From positions 806,001 through 870,000 of the forward strand of contig OZ237758.1 of NCBI GenBank assembly GCA_965178125.1: a stretch of 64,000 nt of DNA, read 5' to 3'. The notes under the pieces are model-generated. The model had not been told where the DNA came from and did not search any database. It worked only from the letters and a program-made list of their open reading frames with translations. This document shows positions 3-62,470 of this stretch, piece by piece (position 1 is the stretch's first letter; every line of letters begins with the position of its first letter). A program made the translations under genes and the position numbers. Source of the DNA: Bilabrum cf. latius (taxonomy: Eukaryota).

Positions 3-3000
3 GCTAGAGAGGAGAGGAAGCTGGCCGCGAGGTACGTGCAGCTGGAGGAGAGGCGCCTCCTCGAGACCTCACGAGTGCTCGTTCAGGCAGCCGAGCGCGA
101 GAGGCAGCTGCTCCGATCCTCGTATTCAGAGGTTGCAACAGCCCTGACCAAGGCCAAGGAGGTGTCCCCGTCCAGGGAACTGGGCCTGTTTCAGCGCAAG
201 GCGGTCGCTAGGCTGGTCAGGGATCGGGTCGTGTCACAGCACGCCCACCTGGCGGCACTGCCTGATGACCCACGCAAGAAGGCGCAAGAGGAGCAACAGC
301 GCCGCGCAGAGGCGGCTGCGGAACTGCAGCGGGCGGCGGAGCGGCGGCAAGAAGCGCAGAGAAGCCGGTGGGCCGCCGTGGCGGGTCAGGCCGAGGCGGG
401 AGGGCGGCAGCTGTTGACCTGGCTGGAGGGAAGGGACGGCAGCTCGGCGGCAGCTGTGGCCAGTGGAGGTGTTGATGCAGGTGCTGGCGCCGATGCTGGT
501 GGCGACGGCTCTAGTACATCCCAGTCCGGACGCGCGATCGAATCTTCATCGTCACCATAGGAAACCCCGAGTGACGGCGCCGCCACAGGCTCAGCGGCCG
601 TGCTTCCAGGGAGGATGGATCACACGGCAGCGGCTCTTGCACGTGCGCTGACCGTGCGACCCTCACGCCCCGACACGTCAGTGGTCGTAGTATAGGCACG
701 CTCGTCGCACGATTCCAGCGCGCTGAATCGGAGCATGGAGGCTGTGCTTGGGCCACTGAGGGTGGCCTGTTTCGAGACATTCGTGCTGGGCAGCGACCAG
801 GTGCAGGACACTGCGCTGTCGAGCATGCACCTAGTACCTGATGGGGACACTGCGCCTGGCGTGCGATTCAGGGCCACGAGACACGCGGCTGCCACGCTGG
901 GAGTGACGCGGCAGCAGAAGCACCTGCTGCCGGATCTGCTGAAGCTGAGCGTAAAGCACCTCCGGCAAGAGGCCAGCGACAAGAAGCGCGGCGCGAAGCC
1001 CGGTGCCGGCACAGATGCTCATTCGCATCAGCTTCTCCCCCGCTTGCTCAGAGACTCCGTTCGATTGCGACTGCACATGCTCAACGAGACGGCAACATCG
1101 GCAGTGACGATGCGGCGCTAGGGTACCAGGCGTCATGCCATCGTTGTGTGCTGCGCGCTGCAGGCTCTGCTGGCTCAGGTACTGGATCAATCGAGTCCAC
1201 CGGCTGGGAAAGCCGAGGAGGAGAAGGGCACTGCCACAGAGCTGCAGTCGGAGGCGAAAGGGCTCAGAACGGCGCTGTCTGGTCTGTGGACTCGCATATT
1301 CAAAGCCACCGAGGAACCAGACGACGCAGACGCAGGCGGTACAGCTGGCCCAGACGCAGACGCTGACAGCTCGTCTTCGGCAAAAGGCAAGTCGAAGGCA
1401 AAGGGCAAAGGCAAGGCCGGCAAGACCAAGCGCGGCTCAATGGGTGGCAAGAAAGCAGCCGCTGAGGACGAAATCAAAGCAAAGGGGCAGTCGGGCAGTG
1501 CCAAGGGCAGCAAGGTGAGGAGGGGGTCGATTACGAGACCTAGGCGACTTTCCTCGGCGGTTTCCGTGGAAGGCCTAGCCAAGGAGCTGCACGGTCTCGC
1601 CGACGGCGTGTGTGCACTGGTGGCGCGAGTGAGACGACGGGCTGCTTCTGGAGGGGACGGAAGCAGCGACGATGAAGGGAATGGGGGGACCGAAGATGAT
1701 CATTCGCTGGCATCGTACTGCATCTCGCTGGAACCGCTACCTCTGGGGCTGCGATCCATTATGCTTAGCGTGTTTCTGGGCTGCACTGCCCTGGAATTGC
1801 GAGCTGCAACTGCCGTCACTGGCGTTGCACCCGCTGGTGCTTCCTCGGGAATTGCCACCCCTAGTGGAGCGTCAGGTACAGGCACGCACAACTGCATACT
1901 CGTGGAGAGTCCACATCATCGCGCTACAGACCCAGCAGCGACCGTTGCCGATGCTGCCGGCAGCAAGACTACACCTGGTGCAGATGGCAGCGATGCTGAT
2001 CCTGCAGGGCTGGCTGCAAACACGGCAGGCGATCAAGCCACTAACCAGTCACCGCCAGGTCCAGGCCGTGCCGCAGTAGGGGTTCTGCAGGCGCATCCGG
2101 ACGTCGGGCGGCTTGCCGTCGCAGGGCCAGCCCTGTCGGGGTTTGCCGTCCCCAAGGGTGTGCTGGCCGCGGAGCTTGTAGCCACAGCCAGGGCAATCGA
2201 AAGGGCGATGGGCCATCCGCTTCAGCTACTGCCAGGACTGTTGCACGCAACAAACGTTGCTGATAGCAGTGGCTCCGATGGATCCAGTTCAACCGCAGGA
2301 CCCGAAGCAGCCGCCGGTGCTGTGGCGCCCGGCCAGCAGCTCGCCACACTGCCATCCGTTGAGCAATCTGCCGCCGTGTTCCAAGGGAAAACGCCCCTGG
2401 GCGCTGTGCCTGCCGCCGGTTTCGTGGCGTCAATCAACGAAGGATCCGTGGTGGATCAAGTCGCCAAAGAGGTAGAGGAGGCTGGAGCCGATCACAGCAG
2501 CCTGGTGCCAGTGGCGGTGCAGGAAGCGGTGCCTCTCGCCACCGTGAGCGCTGCCGCTGCTGAGGCTGCTTGTGCTGCTGTGGCGGCGGCAGACACGGCG
2601 CGCGATATCTCACTCGTCATGCGTAGACTGCAGCCGCACGGTGGTGACTCGGGTGGGCCAAGTGCAGGCAGTTTCGCCGTCTATGAACTCCGGGAGGCGT
2701 GGCGGGATGCGGTAGAGAAGGAGGAGCAGAAGCACCCAGACGTGGACGGTGCTTTGGCAGGCACCATGGTCCGCAAGGGTGCAGCGCACGGTGGCGAAGG
2801 ACACGGCGCGGTCAAGGGTCTCGAGGGTGAGGACTGGTCCGCCACGTCCATCGCCGCCAAGTTCGGAGCCAAGCTGAGGAAGAGGGCCAAGAGCAGCAAG
2901 ATGAAGAAAAGGAAATCAGAGGAGGAGGAGCAGGCTGCGAGGCAGGCAGATGCTGCTGGTCAGAGGACAGCAGGCAAGAAGGGTGGTGGTGACGAGGGCA

Positions 3001-6000
3001 ATGACGATGCACCTGGGGCAGCAGCAGTGCCCGAAACACCGGAGATGCGACGCTCCAGAGAGCAGTGGAGGAGCGTGGCTCTGCTGACTGCCCGTCTGCA
3101 GCAGTCCGTTGCCCAGTTTGGGAGTGCTGTCTCACTGCTGTCTGGCTGGGCTTCTGACTCGGAATCGCAATGCACGACCCGCGCACGGTCGCACGCATCC
3201 ACCGCGATGCAGGTTCTCGCCGACGCGATCATGCAACTTGGCGGTCTGCCAGCGGAAGACGCCGGACGCACAACTACCGGTGCCACTAAGCCGTCCGCCG
3301 ATGGGTCCGCCCAGGATGGAGTCACTCCAGAATCGCTCCAGGGTCACTTGTTCGCAGCCATCGGATCTGTATCTGCCCGGGCATTGCACGCACAAGTGGA
3401 AAAGGAGTCCATGTCAGGTCCCATGGGGCAGCTTCCGCCGTCAAAGGCCGTGCTGCAGCCATTGCAGCTCGCTGGGCTGGTGGGAAGGCAGCTCGCCGGC
3501 GCGTTGGAAGACCTTGTCCTGGCCGTTGGCGCATCGCACGCCGCAGCTAGTGGAAGTGCAGGCTCGGCGGCCTCGGCAGCGACTTGGCTTAGAGGTGGAT
3601 TTCGGTGGCGTGCGCGACAGTGCATCGGAGACAGTGCGGAAGCGTGCATGGCTCGCGCTCACGCAGCGCAGGAGGAAAAGCAGCAGAGCCAGGTAGGGGA
3701 GGCTGGCGCAGGAATGGGTGCGCAAGGGCCCGCGAGTGCAGGTGCTAGTCCAGCCACTGCCACCTCCGGTGGGGCCGCCTAGCAGGGCAGTGACGAAGGT
3801 GGCGAGCTGGACGATGCGGATGAGGAAGAAGAGGAGCCTCCATCGCTGGATGAGATCGTTAGTGCTCTCGCCCAGCTGCCCTCTATTGCCCTGCTAGACG
3901 ATCCAGCGATAGTGACTAGTAGCTCGCATGCGCCTGCTGAGGAGTCTGCCAGCTCCGGCGCTGGCGCTGGCGCTAGTCCTGATGCGTCGGCGCCATCTGC
4001 AGCCGGTGGAGGTGTCAACTTGCTTGCGCTGCAGTCTCTGGGGCCTCGTGATCGCGCGGCCGAAGCTCTGGACTCTCACGTTGCAGATGCCATCCGAGCC
4101 GGCATGGACGTGGTAGCAGATGAGGCCAGAGATGCGTATGCCAAGCAGCTGCAGCTGTGGCGCAGGGTGGAGCGGCAGCACGGGTTCGGCATGCGCTTTG
4201 AGATTGTGGGGGACGTGCGCACCGGTCTAGAGCGAGCGTTGGCGGCTGGCGCCGGTGCTGGTGCCGGTGCTGGCGATGGTGAGAGGCAAAGGCAAGAGGC
4301 AGAAGGGAGCGCGGGTGCGGATGGCAGTGGCAGCGAATCGTCGGGATTCGGTGGAGAGGGTGCAGGGAACGGTAGTGCGGGCGATGCCGGGGAAGAGGAT
4401 GCGTCTGAAACTAGGGTACAGCAGCTCGACGCACTGGTCGGCAGGCTCGTGCGTGCAGGGGCTCTGCCACACGACCTGAACATTTCAGTCGCGGTCCCAG
4501 GGAGGGCCGAGGTCGTGGCTCTGTCTGACGCCGGAGCAGCCGTCTTCAGCAGCCTGTCGCTGCTGCTCGCGCGGCTCCGCGCGTCGACTCGGGCCAACCT
4601 TCGGTTGGGCGGATGGGATAGCAGTTCCATAGACACGAGCCCAAGAGGTCACGCCGTGGCGCAAGAGCCCGGTTCGTACCCCTGGCAGTGGATACCCGCG
4701 ATACACAGGTCCGCAGTTATGGTAGCTAGCGAAGTATCGCTGCCGGGGGACAGCGCGGCTGTTGATGCAGGTGCCGTGCAAGGCACAACCGAGGGGCTGG
4801 ATTCCATCGACCGTTCTGCATCTGCTGCCGCCCTGGCCATAGCAAACTCTTCGAGCGTAGCTCTACCTGTATCCACGCCTGTCTTGCAGCGACTGGGCGG
4901 TCTCTTGCTAGGCTCTAGTTTCGTCGGGCGAGGTACCGGCACTGGAGTGGCGGCACCGCCCGAGCTCCCGCTGGGTGTCTTTGGACCATTGAGCCAAGAA
5001 TCCACCCGTGGGCCAGAAAGCGTGCTCATCCGATGCCCATTGCCGCGACACTCAAGCGAGGCGGTCTCACAAGGGGTGCACAAAGTGGTCGGGCGCTGCA
5101 TCGAGGTACTCGCAGCCGGAATGGCGCCGTCAGATGCCGACAGGTTGGTGGGCAGGCTGCCAAGAGAACCAGCCATGATTGCGGCTGCCAGGCACGGATC
5201 ATTGTTTGGGGGAACACCGGGGTCGGCTGCCACTCCTGGAGCGCCTGCTTCCGCGAAACCGCCGCAGTCACCAGGCCGTGCGCCACAGGCAGCGGGCGGG
5301 GCCAACACGACGGGTGGGCAAACCCGCGGTGGTGCTCCGGCAGCCGCACCCGGCCGGGATGGAACCGGCACTGGCGCGGCTAGCGGCGGCATGTTTGCTC
5401 GATTCACGGCATTTGCCCAGAACGTGATCGCTTCCGCCACCACAGAGTCGGGCGGGGACGCACAGCAGCAGCACGCAGGTCAAGCGGGGGCGGCCCAACG
5501 GGGGGCTGCAGGGGCTTCTGCTGCTGCTGCTGCTGCTGCTGCAGGTGGCAGCGGTCGTGGTTCTAGCAGACCGCGTGAGATGAGGCGGCTGGGCACCCGG
5601 GCCAGTGCAGCTGTGCTCCTTACGATGCTTGCCCGGGTGAACGACATCGTGGGCCTGCGAGACAGGCTGCCTCTGCTGCTTGAGGCTCTGGCAGCTTCCA
5701 ACGGGACCTCTGCTTCAGAGACACATAGCAATGAAGGTGGTGACGGTCATCATGCTGTAGGATACATGCCGCTGCTATTGTCCACAACTGTGGCAGGCAA
5801 CGCGCAAAAGAAATCCTCGGCCCACGGCCTGTCAGTGCCACCGTCCAATGCTACCGGACTGGTTAAGAACCTCTTCGGATCCACGCATGCCCGTCTAAGC
5901 CGTGCTGCGGCTGCGCTGTGCGGTTTTATCGCCGTGCACCTCGTGTTCGTGCAAGTGGGTGAGCTGGCTCGGCGGCTGTACGTGCCCGACCCGTCGTCTC

Positions 6001-6665
6001 CTGAAAGGCGGCTGGCAGCACTGGTGGGTCGGGTCGCAGGCAGCATCAGCCTTGTGCGGCACAGAGTGGCAAGAGTAGCCGTGGATGCGTTCTTGTTCCG
6101 ATCCATGGAGTCTGTTCTTGAAGCCTGGTGCCGTGCGGTGCTGTTCCCGCCACCATCGGCCAAGCCGCTTGAACCGGGCTTCGCCTACATGCTTCGGCAG
6201 GATCTAGACTGCGTGAAGGGGGCTTTCAGCGCCGAGGAAGTGGTGCCGGGATCTGTCAGTGATGGTGGTAGCAGGCAAGGCTTGCCGCCGCGCATCGTTG
6301 CAGGCATGGTGTAGCAGCTGCAGGCGCTTGTGACTTCGTCTGTTGCCCTGGATGCCGGCAAGCTGGCTGATGCGTACATGGCAGCGAGAGAGACAGCGCG
6401 CCGGGACGCGCATGCGGGCAAGGAGGCTGGGTCGGATGGCATTGGCGTGATGCTTGAGGATGCTGCGGAGGACGAGGCGATGTTGCTGGGGATGCCGTCT
6501 CTGCGCAGCTTCCGCGCAGTGTCAGCGGGACGATCTTCGCAGACTTCGTTTGCTCTGGTGCTGCTGCGACGCGGCGAGGCTGAGGCCCGTCGTTTCGTGA
6601 CTTCTGCGAAATTGGCGGAAGATGTGTACGGGTCATTCGTGCGCGGGGCTGCCAAGTAGGGCTGA
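3..6665 (+). CDS. Large Munc13/unc-13 homology (MUN/MHD, PATROL1-like) protein, 5'-truncated by the window; needs TAG read as sense
   Basis: ORFs 36-560, 735-1121, 1146-3782, 3912-6314 and 6330-6659 share one frame, separated only by TAG (558, 693, 1119, 3780, 6312, 6657). First TGA at 6663-6665. C-terminal motifs (HLVFVQV..LYVPDP, MESVLEAW..VL, RQDLDCVKGAF..GLP, VLLRRGEAEARRFV) resemble the MHD2 region of plant-type unc-13 homologues (recalled, not searched). Confidence 0.6.
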
Positions 6666-6860: not shown

Positions 6861-7687
6861 TCAGTTGCCTGCCCCAATGGAGCCAGGTGGAGGCGGTGCA
6901 GAGGATGGTCCAGTGTCAGGCTGATGCGAGTGTCCTGGAGGCTTGCTTTGTCCACCTTGCTGCTGGTTGGCAGCTGCTGGCAGCACGTTAGGCCCAGGCA
7001 CAACCGGTGCGATCCCACTCTGCATCGGCGTCTGAGCCGGGCCCACCATGCCCGAAGGAGATGAGTGCGACCTCGGAAGCGCTGCCACCGGCACAGGGGG
7101 TCCTATCTGTCCGGTCGATGGCTGCAGCAAGGGGGCCTGGGACGGCTGCCCCCACAGCGGGACCGGGCCGTGAGGAGTCATCACCATGTACATTTGCATG
7201 CCCATCGGCATGCCCGGCGGGAGTCCGACTGGCATGGGCGGAATCGTTCCAACGCCGGCAGCAAATGGCGCTGAAGATCCCGAGGCGGCGATGGCACTCG
7301 ACGCGCTGGTGCTAGTTGGTACGGTCCCGCCGGGCACTGGCACAGACCCCATCGCTGCGGGGCTGCCCGCCGCTGTTGCCAACACCTCGACAGCGGCTGC
7401 CGCGTCGCGAGCTGACGTCTGCATGCTGCTTGGAGGAGCAGCTGAGCCACCTGCACCACCTGCTGAGCTAGCTGGGGGCAGCGCGTACAAATAAGAGGCG
7501 GCCTGCCCCGGTGCCCCCGCATGCTGTGTGATACCATTGGCAGCAGTCTACCGTGACATTGGGACCATCCCAGCGCTGGGCGGGAACTACCGCATGGGCT
7601 GCGACTGATACATCGATGCATAGGCATTCTGAAGAGGGGCTGATCCGACAGGGACCATGTACGGCCCTCCTCCAGGGTACGGTGGCA

Positions 7688-7733
<46 letters not shown>

Positions 7734-10700
7734 TCCAGGTGGAATGGACGTGCCAAACGAAGACTGCTATTGCTGCTGGTCGGCAGCCGCACCCGCAGCC
7801 GCGAGAGCCTACAACCCGGCAAACGCGGATGAACCGGAGAACGAGCCTCCCCCCATCGCAGTGTCCTCCTGCACCCGCGCTCGCTTGGACGGCGGCCCCA
7901 GGTCAGACAGAGCCAGCTCCGGCAGGTCAGCGGCCACCTCTGTCATTCGGTCGCTCCTGAAACCACGGACAGTCTGCCCGCTGCACAGCCGCAGCACCAC
8001 GTTCGCCACCTCGTACTTGTTCCCTGTGGCTTCCAGCAGGCTCCTGCAACGGAAGAGGATCTCCGTGCTTGACCTGTCCTTCCTGATCTGGTGCGTGGCC
8101 AGCTTCCTCGTGGCGGCCCTCCACTCTGCGATCCTCCATGGCCTCACACCTTTGCTCCTGAGGACGCGGTTGTTGAACGCCAGCAGGAAGTGCCCCTGGG
8201 CAGTCGAGGTCTCCAGCTGCAGGCCATCGCCGTAGGTCCTCCGTGCCGCGAACGTGATCACCTCAGTGAGATATCCCGTGTCTCCTCGGACTCTGCGGTT
8301 ACTGCCGCGCTTCCGGCTGACCTGCTGGGTGCTACCGAGCCTGCCGCGGGTCCGCATGTGACCAGCGGCACTTCCTGCCGTCGCATCTGTCGCGCTGCCC
8401 GTGCTCCCGGCATCGCTGCTGATATCCTGGTAGGCCCCTGGTATGCGCTGGTGCACACCGTCGAGGCCTCCGGCGAGGGTGCCTCCTGCCCCGCTGGCAC
8501 CCATGCCAGACCACACCGAGGAGTTGCTCCCCGCAGCCAGCATGGAGGAGGGTGCGGTGCCTGCCCTCATTGCCGCGTCTGTCGCAGTGCTCGCAGCAGA
8601 GCCTGCCGCCGAGTTGGCGGACGAAGCCCCCTCCGTGCCAAAGACCGCACTGGCACCGTTCTGCACATTTGGTCCACCGATTGAGGCGGCACCCGGGCCC
8701 GTTGCAGGCAGCACGTGGTGGTATTGCGCCGAGGCACCCAGTGCAGGGCGTTTGGAGGCTGCCGCACGCCGCGCGGGCTGCGGGACTGTACCAGCCCCAG
8801 TCGCAGTCGACGTCGCATCGGCTGACAGCTGCGGGGCTTCCGCTGCAGGCGATGACGACGACGATGGCAGCTGCTGAGCTTGAGGTGTCTGCCCGCTGCT
8901 AGCTGCCCGGACGTCTAGATCGGTTGCGCTGCCATCTGTGTCCGATTCCATCACCGATTGCCCTCCCAGGCTGACTCTCACCTTGAGCTTCTGCTTCTTG
9001 TTCGGTTCTGCATCGCTCGTGTCGGGATCGTCGACGGGCCCGCCGTTCGTTTCGTCGTCACTGTTGTTCGGGCTAGTGTCATCTCCGCCGTTGGCACCGC
9101 CTGCCGGGGCTGAGCCCTGGCTGCTCCCCACCTGCGCACTGGCTCGGGTGCGCCTCGTGGAACGGCCCTGATCTCCCTTGCCGGACCCACCCGCATCGTT
9201 CGAAGTGGACTGCCCATTTGATGACGACCCGCCGCCCGTTCTGCTTGACCCACCTGCACGAGCTAGGGCTGCGCGGAGATCGTCGGGATGCACGCCAGCG
9301 CCCCCCAATGGAGCCGAGCCAGTGTTCAACGTCCCCGCAAGTGCCCTCGTCCGGCCGGCTGCATCCCTGTCCTTGCTGTATCTGGGCCCACCAAGCGGAC
9401 TGGTGTCCATGTCAGCTGCAAGGCTGCTGCGTACTGCAGAACAACCGTTCTGCAGGTGCTGGGCAGCGTTTTCCGATGAGGCACGGCGGATTGGTTCGTT
9501 CTGCTGCTGCGGGGTCCCAGCCCGCAGCTGACTGTTTAGCAACAGCTCCTGCTGCAGCTTCCGCTAACTGCGTTCCTTGCGGAGCAGCGCGCCCTGCATT
9601 GCCAGCTGCTGGGGCATGATGTACGGCGGAACAGGCGCGTGCATCGGTGCCACCATCCCAGCGAGTGAGGCGTGGCCAGTCATGCCCACCGAGTTGGCAG
9701 CCATAGTGGGCTGCACCACGCGATACGTCTGCATGTGCTGCACTTGAGCCTGCAAGTCAGCCAGGCTCATGCTACCGTATGCAGTAGCCCCGGCTGCAAC
9801 TGCCAAACGTGGGCTCTGCCACTGAGGGCCCACCCAACGGCCGGCATGCATGCCAAACGACATGGGATGGTTAAGTACGAATGGAGAGTACCCCCCCGCG
9901 TGCAGGCCACTGGGGAACACAAATTGCGACGATGTTGGCCTTTGGTGGGTAGGGCCGGCCTTTGCGTTTCCTCGTGGTTCTCCAGCCGCAACAGGAAGGC
10001 GGTACTGGTACTCTTTGATCGCACTTCCTGTGTGCTTTGCAGGCTACTTGCCCTGCTTCTTGGCAGCAACTGCTGCAACTGCAGCTGCCAGTTTGCTGGG
10101 CACTGGTAGCCTCAGCGACTGGCCTGCGACAGGTTTAACGGGATGGGCAACCGGCTCCATGGGCTTGGAGGCTCCTGCGTGCTGATGGGCTGGCGTTGGA
10201 TCCGTATCGTTGCCTTCGCGTTTCCGAGACACGGACACCGCCGGGCGGGCCGAGCCAACGCTGGCAGGCTCTGGCACACTGTTCGTGCGCTGCGGTGTCG
10301 CCAGCGGGTCCTGCTCCTCCTCTCTTGCCGTGGCCTTGGCAGCTTGTTGGCCTTGCTCTCCTGCTGTCCCAAACGAGCCGCTACCGGTCGCCACTGTCGG
10401 AAAGTGCCCAAGCCTGAAGGCAGGGCCCTTCCGCCGCCGGCTGCCTTTCGGTGCGATCCCAGCAGGGGTTTCTATCCTACCGCTTCCCCCTGAAGGCCCC
10501 TTGGCCTTGTGCCCGGACCGGCCCTTTCCGCCCGGCAGGTCCTCCCGCGTGCCTGGCAATAGCAGAGAGCCCTTCGCCCGCGCCTAGGCCTGTGCCGCAA
10601 TGCGAGCGGTGGGGTCACTGGGCATCCCCGATGCGTTTGAATGCTGCAGTGACATGAGCCGCACCATCGTGGATGCCTGGTAGCCTGCCTATCGGGCCAT

Positions 10701-11616: not shown

Positions 11617-11650
<34 letters not shown>

Positions 11651-32747: not shown

Positions 32748-32756
32748 ATGGGTATC

Positions 32757-49579: not shown

Positions 49580-52500
49580 TCACACCTTCGCCACCGCTCC
49601 CCCCTCCGACACGCCCAGCTGCACCGCCCCCACACACGCTCCCACCAGCATGCGCCTCTGTGCCCGAGTCAACAGCCCTGCCCGCATACCGGCCTGCACA
49701 GCCGCAGCGTCCCCCAAAACACCACCACCCCTGCCCCCCGCCCCCGCCCCCACCGCCCGAGCCGCCCCATCCACCGCCCCGCCCTCCCGCCGCAGCAGCC
49801 GACGGTGCGCCCTCACGGCCTCCCCCGCCAGCCGCTCCAGCACGGCCAGCAGCCGCGCCACCTTGCGCACGGCCCAGTGAACCTTCCTCGGAAGTTCCCT
49901 CTCGAAGGACGGCATCTGTTCCCCGGACACGTCCTGCCCCTCCCTCTCCCTCCGGCGCATGTCCTGGATGAATGCCCGCCGCTTCTCGGATCTCTGCGTC
50001 TCGCACATCTTCACCTTCGCCAAAGCATAGTCAGCCAGCAGCTGCGCGCAGCATCGAGGACCCCCCGCCGCCCCCAGTGTGGGGGACAACCCGTCGAGGA
50101 GGCCGGCGAACAGAGCCGCGCCAGCCGCGCCCGCCCCCAAGCGCTCCAGCCCGAGCTCGTGGCTGGGAGGTTCCGCAACCCCTCGCGCGGCGCCCCTCCC
50201 CCGCGTGGCCTGTCTGGCGGCCTCGACCAGCGCGAGGGGCGGCTCGAGCGCAGGTATGCCCACCGGCTGTGCCGTCAGGTCACCTAGGTCGGCAAGGTTC
50301 TCGCCGGGCCGGGTCCACCCCTTGACACCGCGCCCCGACTCCTCTTCTTCCGCCTCTTGCTGCTGCTTCTCTTCGTACCCATGCCGGTGGCGGTACTGGT
50401 ACTGGTCTGCATCACCGTGCCTCCCCCCGTGGCCCAGCATGCCCCCATACCCCGGCAAACGACTCGCCACACCGTATGCATCACCGCCGGCTCCGTCCCC
50501 CAGATCGTGATCATGCTCGTGATCGTGGCCCACCAGACGGTGCTGGGGGATCCGACCTGACCGACTGGGCCTCAGCCGCATGCTCTGCGCCCGCATGATG
50601 GCACGGCCCGCAGGCGCCGCCATCACATGCGCCCCTGCCCGCCCATCGCCGCCCTCGCCCTCTCTTTCTCCCTCACGCATGTGCTCGGACACCGCCACCG
50701 CCACCGTCCTCTTGTCCCGGCTGCTGCTGCTGCTGCCCCACATGGCAGACCTCGCCCTCGCTATGCCGCCCTCTTGTTCCCCCGCACCGCCGCCATCCTC
50801 TCCGTCCTTCTCGCCCAGCCGGAACCGCAGCTGGGGACCCCCGCCTCCACCACCACCGAGGGCCTCCTCGAGCGCAGCGGCATCCACGGGCAGAGCATCG
50901 GACAAGAGCGTGCCGCTGGACCGCCTCGAGTGGGTCTGGCTGGGACCCCTTCCGCTACCAGGAGTAGAGGAGCGACCCAGTGCCGCCTCTTTGTGTTCCC
51001 TGGGACCCGCCGGTTCGGAATGCAGGAGGAGAGCAAGACGGTGCACGGACTTTTGCCGCTGAGGGCCCCCCCGTGGCTTGCTTCCGCCGGCGGCACGACC
51101 GTGCGATGCACCAGTCACAAGGGCACCACCGGTGGCACGCACGGCCAGCGCGCCACCAGTCACGAAAGGTGTCCCGCCCTCGGGCCCGCCCTCGTCCTCC
51201 AGCCGACCCATAGGTGAGGCCCACCCGCTGCCATCATGACCCGCCGCGCCGCCCTGGTCGTGACCCGCCGCAGCACCGTCTGTTCCCTGCCCCGAGTCGC
51301 CACCCAGGATCTCTGCCAGGGCCCCCTCTCCCTCCCCCTACGACAGCTGCTTGAAATCCCGGAGGCTCTGCTGCAGCAGCGCCTCATAGGCGCCGAGCTA
51401 CCCCTCCTGAGACAAGGCCCCCCCCTCCCGCTCCCCCTCCTCTCCAGCCGCAGCCAAGGCGCCTTGCCCCAGCTCCTGCCCCGCCCAAGTCGCAAGCCAC
51501 CCGGCCTTGAGGTACGTCCGGTCCCTGTCCACGGTTGCAACCGCATCGTCCAGCGAGGTCTCTCTCCTCACGGAGGCCCCCTCCACCGTGTCCAGCCTCG
51601 TCCTCGGCCTGCCGTCCCACCCGAGGGGCAGACGTGCCAGCATCTTCCTCCTCTTCTACTGCTCCGACAGCTGCTCCATCTCGTCCTGCGTGAGCCAGTG
51701 CCCTTGTTCCCTGAGCCTCGAGTGCTCCTCCTCCATCTCGTCGTCCCAGTCCTCCACTTCGTCCTCGCCCACGTCCTCAAGGTCGTCAGGGTCGGCGGCG
51801 AGCGGGTTACTGGCGCTGTCGCGGCTACCGGCGGCACCGGAAATGATCTCGGTGCCCGGCGCCGGCACCACGTCGCACGTGTAGAGCCACCGCAGCCGAT
51901 TCACCAGCAGCCTGCTCGCCCACAGGCACCGCTCGATGCAGGCCTGCACCAGCGGCACAGGCGCGCACCCCTGCACGCGGGCCGGGGAACAGCGGGTGAT
52001 CCAGTGGGGCACCGGCTCGGGGATCACCTGCTGCTGGCCCTAAATACCTTGTTGTTCCCCAGAGTCGCCCCCCCCGAGGAGGGTACCCAGGGGCATGGGC
52101 AGAGGCAAAGTCTCACCGCTGCCAGGTGCCGCCGCAAGCGCATCCGATCCACCGGTGGATCCCACCGCCGCCAGAGCGATCTGCTCGTCGGTCGGGGCGG
52201 GACTCGCCACGAACCCGGCTATCCCGCTCCCCCGCCATGTGTTCCCCGCAGAGGGGCCGCCATCCAGCTCGAGCTCTAGGCAAACCACGGGCGAGGAGGC
52301 AAGGTTTGCCACCAAGGCATCTGCGTCGTCCCTCTTGTGGAACTTGCGGGCGAACACGGGCACCGAACCTTCGATCGGGTGTTCCCGGATGCTCTCGGGA
52401 GCCGCTTCCTCCCCACCCCCTAGTATTTCTTGCCCGCCGCTGCCTCCCCCCGGCTGTAGCCAGGGAACAGTGGCCGTCTGCCCCCTTGGCACCATCACCC

Positions 52501-55500
52501 GGAAGCACGTGGCCGAGGCTGCAGACTGCGAGGCCCCGGTGCGGTCGACGTCGAAGGCGGGGTACACGTAGATGTGCGCGGCGCCGGTTCCGCTAGCGGA
52601 ACCGCCTCCGCGTCGCATCGGCACAGCCACCGGTCCTCCGTCCCCCGAGGTGTGACGAGCGAGCACGACCCCGTCGGAGTCGGCCAGTGCCCCCGCCCCC
52701 AGGAAGCCCACCTGGCCCGCCCAAGCGTCCTCCTGGCCCCCCGACCCGCTCCCGCCCGAGGACCCGCGCCCCTCCTGGACCCCCTTGACCACGGTCACGG
52801 CGGTGTCTGGCCCCAGCACCACCGCGCCCGGGTGTGCCTCCGCCAGCTGGGCCACTAGGTGGTGCCCGCTCTAGCCCTCTTCCAGCCGGAACACGCGCCA
52901 GGCGGGGTTCGCGCTGCTGAAGCCAGACCCCGCGCCAGACCCCGCCGGGGTGAGGCCACCCACACCCCCACCTTGATCCTGATCCTGATCCTCATCTTGA
53001 TCTCGATCTCGATCTTGATCTTGATCTTGATCTTGATCTTGATCTTGATGTTCATCGCCAAGGTCCCAAGCGGGATCGAGGCCGCCATCCCACGGGCCGC
53101 AGCCCACGAACCCCACAGCGTAGTACACGGGCATCTGCTCGAGGGTCGCGCCGAACCGCCGCCTCATGCGCAGTGCCTCCTGAAGACTGCTGGCAGGGGA
53201 GGAGGGGGCGCCGCCCCGCTTCAACCCCTGCCCCTGCCCCTCGCCGTGCGGCTGTAGCGCCAGCAGCTTCTCCGACTCCCGCAGCTTGGCTATCCTCCTC
53301 TGCAGCGATTGCACCGCATCCCACTGCACCTTGGTCAGCGACTCCGCAGCGCTGGCAGCGGCAGGACCCACCGTCTGACCCAGCTGGCCCCGCGCAAGAG
53401 CAACTCCGCGACGGGGCGCAGGGCTCGCCGCCGCACCGCCCGCCTAGATTGCGCGCTCCAGCGCCGACTCAGCCTCGGCAGTCGTCAGCAGCGCCCTGCC
53501 CTCCACCTGCAGCCGGCACCGCAATGCAGTGCACAGAGCCACGGACAGGTCACTCTCCCCCGCGGCGTCCGCGCAGGCCACCGCCTCCGTGAAGGCCGCT
53601 CCCAGCCACGCGACCGCCTTGCTCGCAGGCCCGGCGCCCGCGTGCGTCCAGAGCGCGGGGCCGGAGCCCACCGCCGTCAGCATCCCAGAGCCGGGCACCT
53701 CCTGCCCGGGCCCCAGGCTGGGGCCCTCCTCCAGCCGAACTACCACAGCCGGATCCACCGGTGGATCGGAGCCGCCACCGCCACTGCCACTGCTTGCCGC
53801 CGCCTGCAGCAGCGAAGCCACGAGTGCCGCTGTTGCAGAACTCGCAGTGGCAGGGTGAGACCACGCCAGGCGCCTCTGCAGCGAGGGGCGCGCATCCAAG
53901 GCTGCTTGGGGGTCGGTCCTCCCGAGGGTGGAGGACGTGTTCCCTGAAAACGCATCGCTGGTCCCGGGGCCCTTCCCGAGAGTGGCGGCCAGCGACGGCG
54001 GATTCTCGGCGGTGGGGTAGGAGGACCCGCTGGTGCCCGCCTGGACCCCTTGCTGTTCCCCAGTGGACCCGTGCAGCGGCGCCAGCACCCGGGCCCACTC
54101 CAGCCAGCACCGAGCCACGACCCCTCCCGTGTCGAAGCCACCGGCTGGGATACCACCGGGCCTTGCCTTGCCGGAGCTGCTCGAGGCCGGGGGCTGGGCC
54201 GACGAGGGGCCGGCAGACCCGTGGGCGGGCACCGAAGCTTCGGTCTCCCAGGGAACAAGAGCACCGGAAGAAGGCCCAACCGACCCCTGGCTACCGTCCG
54301 TCCCATCGATGTCAGAAGCAGACCCCAGCCCTGCGAACTCCCCGCCTTGGAATCCATGCCCCCCGGCAGGCACCCACCCGCCGTCTCCCTCTCCCTCTCC
54401 CCCAGCGACAGCCACGAAACCTCGCACGCCGCACGCAGACCCGCCCCAGGCCCGCGCGCTCCACAGGCGCCCGAGCACCAGCGCCCGCAGAGCCTGCGCC
54501 TGGGCCACCATGAGCCCGTCGTCCAGCCCGCCCGCACCGCCGCGCGACTCGGGCAATCCACCGGTGGAGTGGTCCTCCGGGTCGGCAGAGCCGCGGGACC
54601 CGCGCTGTACCCCGGCCTGCGACTCGCCCAGCAGACCGGCGCCGCCCGCCACCCTCGCGATCGCGTCGCACAGCACGACGCAAGCGTCGGGCGCCACACC
54701 GCTGGCCAGCACTGCCAGCTGCCTCAAGGCCTCCACGGGGCCGTGGGAGGCCGACGAGGGCTGGAGAGCGGGCGGGGGTGGCAGCCCCAGAGGCACCGCG
54801 GCCGCGTGTTGAGCGCTGCCGCCATCGACCACCCTTTTCGCTGCAGCCACCGCGGCTCTCGTGGCAGGCGGCGCTGGCACCCCGAGGCGGGCCACGGCGG
54901 CACCACCGGCGCGTCCTTCACGGCCAGAGTCCCCCGCTGCACTGGACCTGAGCACGCCCGGGCTCTGCCCCGAGACCACGTAGGGGTGCCTCCCCGCCCC
55001 CACCGCCCCGGGGGGCACGAGGGCCAGTCCCTTGCGGAGGGTACCGCACACGGAGGCAAAGGAATCCGTCCATGAAGCCACCACCGACAGGGCCTGACGG
55101 GAGGATAGAGAACGTTCCTTGGAGGCTGCTCCCTCCAGCTCGGCCCGCAGCGAGTCCGAGACGGCAGCGGCCACGAGAGCCGCGCAGTCCATGGGCCTCA
55201 CGTCGAGCAGCAGAGCGTGCGCCGGGAGAGGGATCCAGCGACCCCCCCGCGCGCCCGCCCTGAAGGTCAACCCGCTGGCCGCCCTCACCCCGAGGCTGCT
55301 GCGGGGAGGCGCCAGGGCCCCGCAGGCCCACCGCAGCAGGCAGGCGAGCAGAGCGTGCGCGGTGGCGGGGCACCCGCCCGAGCCAGAGGCAGCGGACTCC
55401 GAGACGATGCACGCGGCCACAGCCTCGGCAGCCGACTGCACCTCACTTACAGCAGCAGCGGCTGCAGGTACTGTCCCGGAGCCCTGCCCAGCCCCAGCCC

Positions 55501-58500
55501 CCGTCCCCTGCTGCGCCGCAATCTGCACAAGTGACACGAACGCCAGCCCTGCCCGTCCCCTGGACGCCTCGTCCGCGCCCTCTGCATAGACCGCCGATGC
55601 CTGCCTCAGGGCCTCCTCCAGCATCTGCACCCGGGCCCGCTGGGATGTGGTGCTGGGTGCACCGCCACTTTGGCCACCCTCCTCCACCCCTGCTATGCCT
55701 GACGCGTCTGCCCCTTTACCACGGCCCGAGACGGGCACCAGAGCCAGCCCTGCGCCCTGCTTGTTCCCCGAGGAGGCCCCCTGCAGCCGGATGGTTGACA
55801 GCATCCGGCGGACTCCCCTCCCCCACGCTGTTCCTCGGGCGACGGAGGCCCCTGCCAGAAAGGCCCAGAAGCTCGAAGCTGCCTGCAGGGGCCCGCCGGT
55901 GGCAGAATGCCGCGCGGTCCAGGCCCAGGCCAGGGCGACAGGAACCGCCATGGCGTCATCTGCAGCGTCCGATTGTTCCCTGGACCGCCCGTCGCCCCTC
56001 CCGCCGCGGCCCCGCAGCTCCACCAGCGCACCCGCCACCGGTCCCACCAGAGACCCGAGCCCTGCCTGCCCCGTGCTCGTGCTCATGCTCGTCTGCGACA
56101 GGGAAGCAGCGACCTGGGTCGATGCGCCAGCACCTGACCAGGCTGACTCCCTGCTTCCAGCCGAGCGAGCGTCCTGCGGGCGGGTGAGGTCGCACCCCGC
56201 TGCAGCTAGCAGCAGGATCGATGCCTCTCCTGCCACGCCAGTTTGACCACCCTCTTGTTCCCTGTGGTCCTACCCCTGCAGCATCGGGAGGAGCTCGTCG
56301 GCGATCGACAGCCAGTCGCCGCTGCCGCCATCACCCCCCGAATGCCCGGGCGACCCCCCGATGGTGACCCGCACCGCCGGCCGCCTCTCCCCCGCGCGGG
56401 TCCCCGCAGCGCAGAGCGCGTCCAGAAGGACCGCCCCGAGGCCGCCCACCTCGCCCTCCATCGCGTCCAGCGACGCAGCGCCGGCCACGGAAGAGCCGCC
56501 AGACTACGGATCATCGTCCTCGTCCTCGTCCTCGTCCTTGTCTCCTCGACCCACAGTGGCCCCCTCGCCCTTCCACTGCTCCCTGAAACCACCTCCCGCT
56601 TCGTCATCCAGCGAACTCTTGGACTCGAGAGCGGCCTGCGAGCCCCTCCCGAGCCGGGGTGCCGGAGCACTCGTCACACTGCCAAGGGACGCGCGCAAGG
56701 CGCTCTCAGCAGCAACCCGTGCCCCATCCAGACCGCCCGATCGGCATCCCTCGCACGCGGCACTCGTCACACTCAGGCCAGCGGCAAGCCAGCTGGGGCC
56801 CCTCGCCCCTGTCGCCGAGCCATCGAGATCTCCCGTCGGCCCACGGGCGGCGTCCGTGAGGCATTTGGCCAGCGATCGGAGCGCCCCGGGCGGGACGTCT
56901 GACCTGCCCAGGTACCGCACCAGCTGGCCCGCGGCCTATTCGGCTCCGAGTCCGGCCCCCACCACCCCTCTCCTCGGAGACACAGCGTACCCCTTTCCTG
57001 TTCCCTCTCCCGCCAGCGCCCGCGCACCACCCCCGTCTCCCCGCAGGCCACCCCCCGATTCGTCCCCTGTCACCCCCCCGGTCGCGGCCCCCAGAATCCT
57101 GCGGAAGTGCAGCGCCAGCACGGCCGCGTGTGTGGCCACAGAGGCGCGCACCGCATCGTGCCACCACACCGGGGACCCGCCTCCCGATGATCGGATCAGG
57201 GATCGGATCAAACCCCAGCAGCGCGACCCCGCCGCAAGCAGGGACGGCAGCGCCCACGCCAGCCGCAGCCCCCGCCTCTGCCTCAGCAAACAGGCCCGAC
57301 TCGCGTCACCGGGCGCAGCACCCGCACCCTCACCCCTCCCCAGCAGTGAGTGCGTCATGCCGGCAAGCAGGTCACAGCAGGGGCCCAGCAGCGACTCGGC
57401 GTTCTGCCACGCAGCGCTCCACGCCCTGGCAGTGGAGCTGTCACTGTGATCAGACCCGCTCGCACCATCCATGCCCCGGCCGACTCGGGCATCGGAGCTC
57501 ACCGGCAGCTAACCCGCCCCGAGTGCAAGCAGGACGGTCGCGGCGCGAACCGCTGCAGGCACCGCAATGCCCTGCAGGCTGGCCTGCGCGCTGGCCACTG
57601 GCAGCAACCGCCGGTGCGCGGGTCCGGCGTGCAGTGCCGAAGCAAGGCTGGCAGGGCTGGGGTCGAGGCAGAGCACCCGGGCGGTGACACCTGCGAGTGC
57701 CCCCGCGAGGGCCCGGCGCTCGGGGCACGACGCCCAGAGCCTTTGCAGATCCGCGCGGGCGTCTGCAGCAGCGGCGGCGGTAGCAGACGGGAGTGGCTGA
57801 TCGCATGCAGGGGGCACCGGCACGGCGGCAGCAGCGAGGACCGTGGAGGGCCACGGGGCCGTGAGGCGCCGCCACGAGGCGAATGCAGAGGAGGCGGCGG
57901 TGGATGGTTGCGCGCTGCCGTGCAATGCATCCGACTCTGCCCGAGCCGTGCTCTCCCACCCAAACGCACCACCGTGCGCTGCAGTTGCACCAGCCGTCCT
58001 CTTCGCCCCAGGCGCATCACCCCCACCAAGCGAGGCACCCAGCACCGTCCCTCCACCAAGCTCGCCCTCGCCCTCGCCCTCGCCCTCGCCCTCGCCCTCG
58101 CCCTCGCCCTCGGCCCCTACCATCCCATCCCCCGCCCGACCCCCGCTGGGTGCCCCGGGGACCCCCAGCGCGCCCACTCTCGAGGTCCGGTACTTGTCCA
58201 GGAAGCTGCCCCCTCGGGAGGTGCTCCCCTTCCCCTTGGATGAATTCGCGCCTTGTGTGCCGCCACTAACACTGCGGCTGAAAGAGTGAGCCAGCGACGA
58301 CCCACCTCCCGCAAGCTGACCGGCCTCTGCTTGGCTTGGTGATGGGTGCGTCGTCGCACTGCCAACAACCACAGGCAAGCGCAAGGAAACCGCCTGGCTG
58401 CACGCCAAATCGCCAGCCACCGCCCCGGCAGCCGCGAGCACCTGCTGCGCCGCCTCCACAGCCGCCTAGCCCGGGGCCAGTGCACTCGCCCAAGGCAGCA

Positions 58501-61500
58501 TGGCTCCGGTCGCGAGCACGACCCGCCGCAGGGCCGCAGCGGCCGCCTCGGCGACGGCGTGCCACTGCGCCTGCGCCCGGCCCTCCTCCTCCGCTTGTTC
58601 CCCGAGACGAACGTTCCCTCGTCCCAGCGCATCCCCCGGCGACACCCACCGGCCGCGCACCCGCATGCCCCGACGGGCCCTCATCCCGGCGGCCACGGCG
58701 GCCTCACACGACGCGTTGGCGGCAGATGACAGTCGGAGCAGCACCCAGCGCGCGAGGCCCGCGGCAGCCTCCGCTGGCCTGTCCAGGGCGGGCCCTCCAT
58801 GCATCCCTTTCCTCTCTCTGCCTGTGGACGAGAAGGCAGCCGCCGAGTCTGCGCCGGCCCACGACCCGCCGCTCCCGGAGGCAGCATCCAGGGCTGCCTC
58901 CAGCCCCTCCCCGCACACGTGGCCGTGGGAAGCTGCGTGCCTCGCCGCAGATGCAGCCAGCCGGGCGCACCGCTCCAGTGCGGCCAATCCATCGGTGGAC
59001 GGCACGCACCGCCTGACGTCATGGGCGGACATGCGCCCCTCCAGCGCGCCCCGCCGCAGCGCCTCCCGCACGCTGGGCAGATCTGCACCGCCGTGCGATG
59101 CACCCGCGAGCTCCCCCCTCATCCTCAGTCTCCTCGCACGAGCCGTCGCTGCCTCGAACCCCACCGCCGCCATGGCCGCCTCGTGCGACTCGCTGAGCGC
59201 CGCGCTCGCCCTCCCTCGAGCCGCGCGCAGCACGCCGTCCACGAGCCCCATCATCTCGGCCGTCTCCTGCCGCTGGATGCTCGCGATGCCAGTCTCCTCC
59301 CCCTCGTCGTCTGTTCCCTCTCCCTCCTCATCGCCGCCCTCGTCCACCCTGCCCCACAGCCACGCGTCCACCACCGCCGCAGACAGGCCGTGCGCCGACT
59401 CGTCCGATCCGAGCAGCACGTCGAAGAAGTGCCCCGCCTCCCGGAGAACAAGGTTCTCGTGGCCAGCCGCACCACTGGCGCCATCGCTCTCATTCGTCAC
59501 ACCCACCCCGCCGCTCAGCACCGCCCTCACGTCCCTCGCCCGGGCCCGCCGAAGCAGGCGGCCGAGGAGGGGCACCAACACGCGGCGGCGGCGCAGGGCC
59601 CATCCGGAGCCACAATCCGACAGCAGGCGCCCCCCCGCGGCGCACAGAGTTGCAAGAGCGGCCGACTCGCCTTCCTCTGCCGCCAATCGGAGCAGCAGCT
59701 CCCCGCCGGTGCAGCTGCTGGGCGCATCGAGCGCTGGCATGCGGGTCGAATTCGAAGGAGAGCCGCCCCTGCTGGCCGCAACCGAGGCGACCGTCCTAGC
59801 TGTCTCGCCCAGGGCATCGTGCTCCGCCCCGCCGTGCGATGCACCTGTTGTTCCCCCCGGCAGGGCCAGCGAGGGCCCCTCCCGAGCCGCCAGCGGCCTC
59901 AGCTAAACCACCGCGGCAGCAGGGAACAGGCCGGCACCCTGCGCCCGAGCGACGTGCCTGGACGTTGCCCGGCCCGACGCCGATGCCACGGGATCCGGGT
60001 CCTCCTCGTCCCGCGCACCACCATGCGATGCACCCATCCCCGCCGCGGCTCGGAGTGCGGCCCCCCGGCTCGCCGCCAGGCTCCGAGGGAGAGGCAGCAG
60101 CGGCGAGGGGGTGCCCCTGAACCCGCTCACTGCCGCCTCGGCCTCCCCCTCCGTGGGTGCCTGGGGCATGGCAGCCAGGTCAGAAACTGGCCATGCCCCG
60201 CCCATGCCGTCTTCCTCACCCTGTCCACCACCACCACCACCTCCCTCGCGCAGCTGCTCTCCCGAAACCGCTCCCCAGGGCTCCTCCGCATCGGCGAAGA
60301 AGAGTCCCAGGTGCTCGGGCCGGCGGGTCAGGGCCTGTTTCGACTCCGGGTCCGAGGCTGCGCGCTGTTCCGCAGCGGCAGCCGCGAGCGGGAGCAGGCT
60401 AGCGGGTGCCCCAGGGAACAAGCGGAGGGGGAACAAGCCGGCTGCCGGGGCCAGGGGAGGCCCCGCCCCTGCTTGGCTGCTCCCATCCAGAGCCAGGCAC
60501 GCGTGGGCCACCACCACCGGGAGCCTTGCCCTGCTGGCGGGATCGGATCGGCTTGGCTCGCCCAGCAACCATACCATCAGACGGGTGGCGCGGTGGCTGC
60601 TGCGGGGGTCTGCGCTCCCCCCTGTGACCCCGCCCTGGGGTCCTGCAGCCAGGGGCACAGCCACGGCGGGAATCGCGCTCGCCCTCCACCGCCCGTCCCT
60701 CCCCACCGCGGCCTACCCGCACGGGAACGGCCCCGACACCAGCCTGCCGCACTCGTCACACGTCCCCACCAGCGCGCGCACGGACCCGAGCCGCAGCGGC
60801 AGCACCCGCTCCGTGCTGGCACTGGCTTTAGCCCCGCCCCCGCCCTCCCTCGGCTCGAGGGGGGGCTGCCGCAGCGCCGACCACCCAGGCACCTGCCCCG
60901 CCTGCAGCAGCGCCCTCAGCGAAACGAGCACCTCTGTTCTGGGGGGCACGAGCAGGTGCTCGGGCCGGAGGTAGGCAGGCACCGAGGCCACGCCGGGGAG
61001 CGAGCCCCGAGTTTCGGCTCCGATTCCCCCTGTTCTCCGCAGCAGGAGGCCCACGGGAGCCCCCAGCAGCACCTCGCCGCCCCTCGCCATCCCCAGCACG
61101 TCCTCGTCAGCGGCCCCTGGCCGAAGGTTCGCTGAGGGTCCCCGCAGCGCCAAGGTCAGCCGGGCCGGGATGCCAATTCGCAGGGAGGCGGGCGACTCTG
61201 GGACGGGCATCGCAGAATTTATTCCGACTCCGAGTGACGAGAATGAGATTTCCTGCCTGGCGAATGCTACTGCTTCATGGCCCGCAGTGCCTTTGGCCTG
61301 GACTGCAAGACGGACTCGAAGCTGCGGGGTCCAGGCCCCAGCGCGAGACAGCCCAGCCACTGACGCTGCCAACAACCAATCGGGGATTTCGATTCGCACC
61401 GTGCGGCACCGTTTGCCCGGCTGGGCCTGGCTCGTGGCGGGCGCGGCGGCGTCGCACGACACCCGTCTTGCGCCGTGCGATGCGGATACCAGCCAAAGGG

Positions 61501-62470
61501 ACACGCTCCAGTGCATAGACGGGTTTTCAAGTGGCAAGTGCACCCCCTTGCGCTCCAGCACGCTATTCGGGAGCTCAACCAGCAATTCGTGCTTGGCTGC
61601 CTGCCTGGGCCACGCGGATGACGACGCATCCGTGTGTATAGCGCGGCCCAAATCTTGCCCACCGGTCCATGAAGACGGGATCAGCTATGATGATGGACCA
61701 TGAATCAGTGATGATCCCTGAAGTGCGGGAGAGGGCGGCACAACCGCCGTAGGGTTCGCCATAGCGGCTGATGTGGACGGCGGAGCTGACCAATCAGCGC
61801 CGCCCTGCTTCTGCGAGGGAATCCGCAGCTGCTCTAATCTTGACCTAGTTCGGCTGCTATAGGCAGAATATTCACCAAATGGGGACTGCATCTCTGTGCA
61901 GGCCTAGATTTGTCTTTGGATCAACGACTCGAGGTCTGATTTTGGGTAACGTGCAGTATTGCAGCAAGCTGTAGCCCGTAGCCCAGAGCAGGCTAGACTA
62001 GTCTAGGGCACATGCCGGAGATGCAGCACAGTACAATGCAGCAGATAATCAAGGCGCACCTTCGTGTCCGCGTCCGAAGGCCACGTGCGACGATGGACCC
62101 TGAAGACAACGGAGACGAAGAGTGGAAGGCCAGCGGTCAGTGCGGTCCCGAGATGCCCCCCGGCGTGGACTAGAGGAGATGCCAAGGAACAGTGCTTCTT
62201 TATGCGGGAGAGCGGAACATCGAACCGCCCTCCTCTCCTGGCCTGGAACAGGTCGCTGACGCGGCGCAGAGGTGGGTGCAGTGCTTCTTGGCACACCAGC
62301 GGAGCACCTGCTCCCTCCTGCCTCTCAGCGGGCGGTTCTCTCCTCTCCACTGGCACGGTCTCGTCGGGGGCGAGAGTGGCCATGATCGCCGCTGAAACAC
62401 CTAGCTGCGTCAGGGCTGGGGCAAGCACCAGCGGAAGCACCGGCACTAGCGCCACCGCGGACCCGTGCAT
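49580..62470 (-). CDS. Giant (~4300-codon) protein, possibly a divergent DOCK-family Rho GEF; 5' end and possible 5' introns unresolved
   Basis: Fifteen listed ORFs lie in one frame over 12.9 kb, interrupted only by TAG (51338, 51398, 51656, 52040, 52871, 53444, 56270, 56504, 56936, 57509, 58466, 59903, 60713, 61685, 61904, 62003). TGA at 49580. PVYYAVGFVG..WRVFR..HIYVYP resembles the DHR-2 start, and there is a C2-like segment near 61200-61600. The CDS is well supported but the family call is tentative. Confidence 0.65.
52973..53049 (-). repeat. Hexamer microsatellite (GATCAA/GATCAG/GATCGA)n encoding DQ/DR dipeptides
   Basis: Visible tandem TCTTGA/TCCTGA/TCTCGA units on the plus strand. Confidence 0.85.

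Follow-up and report, generated by a model that had tools for sequence, protein, structure and literature searches.

Nuclear genetic codes in which UAA and UAG have acquired different meanings are few in number, and they bear on the co-evolution of release-factor specificity with suppressor tRNAs. Codes that read both UAA and UAG (UAR) as glutamine (Gln) have been listed for many ciliates, Dasycladales, Cladophorales, Trentepohliales, Hexamita, Streblomastix and Amoeboaphelidium (PMC11687900, PMC8271138). A change of UAG to Gln, with UAA still serving as a stop, has been reported for the fornicate Iotanema spirale (as cited in PMC11687900), and the same source gives UAG as Gln in the ciliates Hartmannula sinica, Trochilia petrani and Protocruzia tuzeti. 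Other meanings have also been recorded, with UAG read as leucine (Leu) in a rhizarian and in TARA ciliates (PMC11687900, PMC8271138) and TAG read as serine (Ser) in the green alga Scotinosphaera, where TAA and TGA are the stops (PMC8271138). The present analysis concerns the UAG codons in 64,000 nucleotides (nt) of DNA from Bilabrum cf. latius (contig OZ237758.1 of assembly GCA_965178125.1, positions 806,001 to 870,000 of the forward strand), a stretch referred to here as the window. An earlier note, made from its sequence alone, had proposed that UAG is a Gln codon throughout and that reassignment of UAG alone is rare. The first proposal is upheld by the codon counts, homology and RNA data described below; the rarity was overstated, further cases being Protocruzia, Hartmannula, Trochilia, the rhizarian, the TARA ciliates and Scotinosphaera.

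The window is very probably nuclear DNA of a GC-rich eukaryote in which UAG is a sense codon, most likely for Gln, UGA terminates every gene seen and UAA has no sense meaning. Its nuclear traits include spliceosomal GT..AG introns, polyadenylated mRNA, the cilium gene BBS1 and a gene for mitoribosomal uL24. As far as can be tested, the code is the same as NCBI translation table 15 (Blepharisma nuclei and some phages), with TAG as Gln, TGA as a stop and TAA not sense. The codon table itself is already known, and the window is a further case of it; the formal table is, however, named after a ciliate, whereas the window is GC-rich (GC fraction 0.56-0.73 along its length, per 4 kb), with genes of many kb and introns of 89-350 nt.

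The likeness to Iotanema lies in the change of UAG alone to Gln in a flagellate that is not a ciliate, whereas the window differs in encoding mitoribosomal uL24 and in being GC-rich. The mitochondrion-related organelle of fornicates has no genome, and a mitoribosomal uL24 is not expected there; its presence argues against the window organism being a fornicate such as Iotanema. With Hartmannula, Trochilia and Protocruzia the window shares the change of UAG alone to Gln, together with a presumed tRNA(CUA) that would not read UAA. For five phyllopharyngean taxa in which UAG is reassigned, the reported share of genes ending in UAA is 86.9-98.3%, with UGA as the rarest stop (PMC11687900); in contrast, all 16 supported genes of the window end in TGA. 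The same source gives a phyllopharyngean GC content of 27.4-53.6%, and the GC content and gene architecture of the window argue against its organism being a ciliate. Codes of the UAR to Gln type (table 6 type) resemble that of the window in having Gln as the new meaning and TGA as a working stop, but differ in that TAA is not sense in the window. Scotinosphaera resembles it in reassigning UAG alone in a eukaryote outside the ciliates, but Ser finds no support in the window. Green algae use TGTAA as a polyadenylation signal, and upstream of the window's one mapped poly(A) site, at 29122, there is neither TGTAA nor AATAAA.

Within the incomplete library that was searched, no paper describing UAG as Gln in a GC-rich non-ciliate was found. 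The setting is unusual, in that the known cases are mostly AT-rich ciliates with a UAA stop, whereas here the genome is GC-rich and all stops seen are UGA. GC pressure should remove UAA rather than UAG, which makes the system useful for testing codon capture against the ambiguous-intermediate model.

UAG codons within genes

Codon counts were made on 11 long gene models (A-E, G and I-M; 15,982 codons in total), which contain 59 in-frame TAGs, no TAA and no TGA. The TAGs sit in eight models (six in A, 12 in B, nine in D, four in E, three in G, seven in K, two in L and 16 in M), with none in C, I and J. Four further genes hold 8 to 12 more: eight occur in the mRNA frame of the mitoribosomal uL24 gene (uL24m), four of them downstream of the last possible start codon, two in exon 1 of the MAP65/PRC1 gene, one in exon 1 of BBS1 and one in a third zinc-finger gene. 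The overall tally of 66-71 agrees with the figure of about 70 given previously, though these TAGs are spread over 12 genes and not over at least 13 as had been stated. Relative to the density of the same triplets in the two off-frames of the sense strand, 29.5 TAAs and 234 TGAs were expected in frame and none of either was seen (P=1.5e-13 and P=2e-102, respectively), whereas TAG is only mildly depleted, with 59 seen against 86.5 predicted. TAG accounts for about 8.5% of the Gln-family codons.

The standard code allows no stop-to-stop frame longer than 2,823 nt, the maximum in the whole window. With TAG as sense the longest frames become 12,981, 6,660, 6,534, 5,892 and 5,664 nt, the first four of which match the frames of 12.9, 6.7, 6.5 and 5.8 kb that had been described as broken by TAG only. 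Taking TAA as sense leaves the frame lengths nearly unaltered, but taking TGA as sense opens many frames too, on all strands, as expected in GC-rich DNA, where no stop triplet is commoner than TGA. Open frames alone are therefore no proof that TAG is sense; the evidence for it is codon bias, homology and RNA. A codon-usage model comparing in-frame with off-frame codons selects the same long frames as coding, in a check that is partly circular, the model having been trained on the 11 gene models themselves. Pfam domains found in the window genes comprise kinase with armadillo, OTU, Myb, C2H2, MAP65, BBS1, EF-1 beta and ATG8; no Pfam family was matched by genes A, B, G and M.

UAA and UGA behave differently from UAG. 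If TAA were also a Gln codon and were used at the CAA/CAG ratio of 0.247, 14.6 TAAs would be expected among the 15,982 codons, and none was seen (P=5e-7). UAA is not a sense codon, and the view that UAG was reassigned without UAA stands. A UAR to Gln code of the table 6 type was rejected on the presence of 59 in-frame TAGs but no TAA. TGA terminates each of the 16 supported genes, namely the 11 models, uL24m, EF-1 beta, ATG8 and two further zinc-finger open reading frames (ORFs), examples being the TGAs at 6663, 6861, 15531, 18689, 26122, 26339, 28946 and 32258. TAA ends none of them, but does end one putative ORF in a contig from a relative (L001, described below). In the window UAA looks almost unused in any role, unlike in the UAG-reassigned ciliates, which rely on it.

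Homologous sequence continues in the same frame beyond the TAGs, as the earlier note had claimed. In uL24m (26339-27766, minus strand), the TAG of the KOW core (27424; motif GGIVRQE-x-AIHYSN) is crossed without a gap in all five PDB alignments shown, of 88 matching sequences. In BBS1 (37222-39439, minus strand), the TAG of exon 1 (39112; motif FFKF-x-LP) is likewise crossed without a gap by three of three PDB sequences. These alignments indicate that TAG is translated, and not which residue it specifies. Closer relatives were found with the kinase gene D (16514-18691, plus strand), for which an exhaustive HMMER search returned 276 proteins, the best two being short fragments of 83% and 81% identity; the gene D relatives P0003, P0004 and P0153 are 81-83% identical to it. 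A word-indexed search with the whole kinase gave only two distant matches, since its length window passed over the short fragments of the close relatives. No relative came from a JGI metagenome scan with this gene. Parts of gene M (49580-62470, minus strand), used in two word-indexed searches, added four more fragments. Gene M matches the protein fragments of one relative at 2,418 of 2,730 aligned positions (1070/1202, 364/417, 760/846 and 224/265 in the individual fragments), which marks it as a conserved protein despite the lack of a Pfam family. Three collinear fragments from the relatives have source contigs of 6,907 nt each, which are probably one and the same. Across the 13 TAG sites of genes D and M that were aligned to close relatives (P0003, P0004 and P0155-P0158), a residue rather than a gap faces TAG in every case.

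RNA data lead to the same result. Twelve public runs cover at least part of the searched stretch, and four of them (X1, X5, X6 and X7) were mapped to 12700-32699. Run X1 is DNA-like, with flat depth and zero splice joints. Runs X5, X6 and X7 belong to two studies other than that of X1; none is on record as RNA and an automatic guess calls X5 probably DNA, but we infer that they are RNA-derived from their splice joints, very uneven depth and, in X5, a poly(A) tail, seen in a contig at 29122. GT..AG introns at 31657-31747, 31804-31892, 32065-32159 and, on the minus strand, 27262-27377 are removed in X5, X6 and X7 alike, and one at 27995-28344 in X5 and X6 only. RNA joints thus establish five introns, and no fewer than three others are predicted (89-350 nt in size), such that the window is not especially intron-poor, contrary to what had been supposed. 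The spliced uL24m contig has no differences from the window, and it retains all eight TAGs in X5 and X6 and the six TAGs of exon 1 in X7. Gene D is covered over 17458-18771 by RNA contigs with no differences (X5 and X6), which include its TAGs at 17498, 17894, 17897, 17930 and 18161; a single unspliced X5 contig (20187-25573) carries all four TAGs of gene E, again with no differences. Altogether, 17 TAGs are kept unchanged in spliced and unspliced RNA contigs, and splicing-out, editing and assembly error are therefore excluded for these 17. The sole base differences reported in the mapped runs are nine variants at 15853-15914, within an intergenic repeat. The surrounding stretch, 15368-16034, has a word depth of about 867 in X1, against 7-22 elsewhere; it probably represents a dispersed repeat, located between the MAP65 and kinase genes.

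The amino acid at UAG and competing explanations

At the 13 TAG sites of genes D and M, the close relatives have Gln six times, glutamate (Glu) three times, Ser twice, and histidine (His) and arginine once each; with the BBS1 site of the window included, at which L001 has Gln, Gln stands at seven of 14 sites. The 3,091 non-TAG positions in these close-relative alignments were used to derive an empirical substitution table, and under it Gln is the best meaning for TAG. Second place falls to lysine (Lys) or His, according to the pseudocount, at least 18 log-likelihood (lnL) units behind; Glu lies at least 24.8 units below Gln and Ser falls outside the best eight residues. L001 has Gln at the TAG of the window BBS1, and its own TAG in the motif SE-x-KQV faces Gln in the window gene and in three of three PDB BBS1 sequences; its other three BBS1 TAGs face H, G and Q of the window. 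In the wider family of the kinase/ARM gene D (nine sites, 154 proteins), Gln is the commonest residue in the column of D164, in four of nine well-aligned homologues, the other TAG columns being too variable to be diagnostic. A likelihood based on neighbour context also places Gln first at all four window sizes, by a margin of just 1-7 lnL units, and the TAGs at poly-Gln runs of gene B speak for Gln as well, with similarly modest weight. Taken from these comparisons, Gln is the most likely meaning, although the support falls short of that in genome-wide studies because few of the TAG sites are in conserved columns. Lys and His were rejected on the gap of at least 18 lnL units, Glu on its 3/13 sites against 156/176 for ordinary Glu and on its likelihood, Ser on its 2/13 sites and low likelihood rank, and Leu on the substitution likelihood.

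A number of observations weigh against this reading. Gln is found less often at TAG sites than at ordinary Gln codons of the same alignments (6/13 against 94/113, Fisher P=0.005), and two of the three Glu counterparts (D550 and M3605) lie amid perfectly conserved surroundings. Both TAGs of gene L are placed in two duplicated zinc-finger linkers that have Glu in every paralogous repeat. The residue aligned to the uL24 KOW TAG is alanine in 5/5 PDB alignments, and those aligned to the BBS1 exon 1 TAG are valine, Ser and Ser. The frames were bounded by TAA and TGA only, such that a terminating TAG would go unseen, and at 6657-6665 in gene A the sequence TAG GGC TGA puts a TAG two codons ahead of the TGA, the sole candidate in the window for a TAG that still terminates. 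ARAGORN found no tRNA gene in the 64-kb window and Rfam gave no matches, such that no part of the decoding machinery was seen there. Concerning the non-Gln counterparts, they may be read as fast turnover at weakly constrained sites, because nearly all of them (E, K and S) are one-base neighbours of TAG. This suggests that UAG codons are gained and lost rapidly, and the lower conservation hints that the UAG codon is young or mildly disfavoured.

The Glu and Ser counterparts are also what would favour UAG being sense for another amino acid, such as Glu (as in peritrichs and Blastocrithidia), Ser (as in Scotinosphaera), Lys or Leu. The conserved context of D550 and M3605, the linker TAG in place of an otherwise invariant Glu, and Ser at 2/13 sites as well as at the BBS1 site in two of three PDB sequences could each be cited for it. 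Three of 13 is nevertheless far too few for a Glu codon, given the conservation of ordinary Glu, and the likelihoods place Glu, Lys and His well below Gln and Ser outside the best eight. The reciprocal TAG/Gln pairs in BBS1 of the window and L001 also point away from another residue, and Glu, Lys and Ser as one-base neighbours of TAG are what would be expected at weakly constrained sites, which leaves this explanation with only a slim chance. A use of UAG that depends on context, as sense inside genes and as a stop at gene ends, is known from Condylostoma and karyorelict ciliates, and a stretch of only 64 kb with frames bounded by TAA and TGA could conceal it; the TAG two codons ahead of the TGA of gene A could be the real stop of that gene. 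Yet all 16 supported genes meet a TGA soon after homology or coding signal stops, the RNA contigs continue beyond TAGs, and the TAG counts by gene decile from start to end (8, 10, 1, 4, 10, 4, 4, 5, 10 and 3) reveal no depletion towards the 3' end, although 16 gene ends make a small sample. We consider such a context-dependent code improbable.

Readthrough is a further alternative, in which the code would be standard and UAG would be passed very efficiently by near-cognate tRNAs, with neither a dedicated tRNA nor a change in eRF1. Near-cognate tRNAs that read through UAG in standard-code organisms are known to insert Gln, and no tRNA(CUA) was seen in the 64-kb window, both of which would fit. 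However, 16 TAGs in one ORF, together with the tandem TAG-TAG that had been noted at 17894-17899 and is indeed present there, in gene D, would demand near-complete readthrough at each site. The base 3' of TAG matches the overall distribution (chi-square P=0.59) and the TAGs are spread along the genes, neither of which points to a readthrough context. In-frame TAG density is moreover near that off frame while TAA and TGA are absent, and the trait is common to relatives whose BBS1 is about 70% identical; efficient readthrough is thus very unlikely. Programmed readthrough, with a single site per gene and a special downstream context, was rejected on the up to 16 TAGs per gene, the tandem pair and the unbiased next base. 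The TAGs could finally be artefacts, arising from unrecognised introns, RNA editing, C-to-T assembly errors or pseudogenes. Introns do occur in several genes, and the TAG at 45978 probably lies within one. Against this stand the RNA contigs of two other studies, which match the DNA at 17 TAGs with a spliced transcript included, the gap-free alignment of relatives across TAG sites, the 84-90% identity over 2,730 residues of gene M, which is not that of decaying pseudogenes, and the complete exclusion of TAA and TGA from the same frames. An artefactual origin is hardly credible, and UAG as a sense codon, most probably for Gln, remains the preferred reading.

Relatives, decoding and a possible independent origin

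A metagenome scan with the TAG-free main exon of BBS1 yielded the contig L001 (3,818 nt, GC fraction 0.54), whose BBS1 shares 92/125 residues of exon 1 and 387/564 of the main exon with that of the window. It carries three in-frame TAGs and no other stop in the frame of the BBS1 main exon, one TAG in BBS1 exon 1 and four in an ORF upstream. This ORF (3-1316 of L001) is closed by a TAA and matches no Pfam family, nor does it show any evident likeness to the sequence upstream of the window BBS1. In public protein collections the relatives occur solely as fragments whose ends fall at or close to TAG positions. Thus P0004 ends where gene D has its tandem TAG, P0003 and P0153 begin at a Met directly after the TAG at D473, P0158 begins five codons after the TAG at M1845 and P0157 begins 11 codons after that at M262, and the ends of these fragments presumably mark TAGs of their own. 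Because L001 carries in-frame TAGs and the fragment ends of the relatives track TAG positions, the UAG trait is common to the relatives and belongs to a clade. Standard-code gene calling shreds these proteins, and table 15 is advisable for annotating assemblies of the clade.

As for the mechanism, established knowledge of stop reassignment would have UAG decoded by a tRNA-Gln with anticodon CUA, and eRF1 would have lost or weakened its recognition of UAG, with recognition of UGA and probably UAA kept. A CUA anticodon is described as not reading UAA (PMC11687900), a property that would account for the uncoupling of UAA and UAG. Neither component is encoded in the window, as had been observed before: ARAGORN gave no tRNA genes there and eRF1 is not among the window genes. 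There is perhaps an even chance that the UAG-only to Gln code arose here independently, as an undescribed origin in a clade whose members are GC-rich, aerobic flagellates with introns. Such a clade would comprise at least three sampled taxa, with BBS1 identity down to about 70%, and would combine UGA as the practically sole terminator, UAA as neither sense nor stop in the window, and a faster turnover of UAG than of ordinary Gln codons.

Genes and repeats of the window

The window opens with gene A (3-6665, plus strand), which is open at its 5' end, ends in TGA and has its six TAGs at 558, 693, 1119, 3780, 6312 and 6657. Gene B (6861-12710, minus strand) encodes a low-complexity protein with a Cys-rich N-terminal part and also ends in TGA. 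Among its 12 in-frame TAGs, those at 11651 and 7769 are found at or within poly-Gln runs, one TAG heading a run of 11 Gln codons and one breaking up another run. The MAP65/PRC1 gene follows on the plus strand, with exon 1 at 12944-13189 (TAGs at 12971 and 13154) joined from a GTGAGG donor to exon 2 at 13281. The MAP65_ASE1 family of Pfam matches residues 14-73 of exon 1, and a PDB search with this exon gave chance matches only; the splice model, which also draws on the 246 leading bases of an X5 contig, is inferred. Exon 2 (13281-15533) served as a control gene, has no TAG and ends in TGA.

Gene D, which ends in TGA, encodes a protein kinase fused to a transmembrane segment and armadillo repeats. 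The kinase family has a conserved GGNQAHLAPEVL-like motif, and its members P0001, P0002 and P0005-P0010 turned up only in ENA and Logan assemblies. Gene E (19696-26124, plus strand) has a C-terminal OTU protease domain, TAGs at 20791, 22759, 24436 and 25276, and a terminal TGA. The window's uL24m carries long extensions; its TAGs lie at 27751, 27745, 27727, 27691, 27628, the KOW core position, 26690 and 26525, and its TGA is at 26339. Two genes without TAG are located nearby on the plus strand, both ending in TGA and both with high depth of RNA contigs. EF-1 beta (27903-28948), a highly expressed control gene, has the intron at 27995-28344 and is polyadenylated at 29122. At its mapped 5' end, the mRNA shows adapter sequence and no spliced leader; with the adapter abutting 27893, the 5' UTR (27893-27903) seems to be only about 10 nt. 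ATG8 (31629-32260), also a control gene, contains the three introns between 31657 and 32159 that are shown by RNA joints. Between these two genes, gene G (29315-31423, minus strand) encodes a coiled-coil-like protein with TAGs at 31099, 30469 and 30391, and it ends in TGA.

C2H2 zinc-finger genes built of 87-nt (29-residue) repeats are clustered at 32683-36687 and 47509-48420, where 22 repeat copies make up three arrays in 4 kb and gene L holds another array. One gene copy (33951-34874, minus strand) has a single in-frame TAG at 34460, for which the paralogous gene I has Lys at the matching position. A segmental duplication links 34835-35134 with 37063-37362 (2,228-nt spacing, 96% identity), and a copy of the last ~200 BBS1 codons (34997-35704) adjoins a second zinc-finger gene copy. 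BBS1 itself consists of a main exon at 37222-39012 with no TAG and an exon 1 at about 39059-39439 with its single TAG, and the gene ends in TGA. Gene K (40606-46173, minus strand) encodes the R2R3 part of a Myb protein with a long low-complexity tail and ends in TGA; all seven of its in-frame TAGs lie outside the Myb repeats, the first being that at 45978. Gene L (47509-48420, minus strand), a C2H2 zinc-finger array, has its TAGs at 47865 and 47778 and ends in TGA, as does gene M, which comprises 4,296 codons. In a region with no recognised gene, at 63593-63940, there is a tandem duplication of a 174-nt unit in perfect register, with 99% identity.

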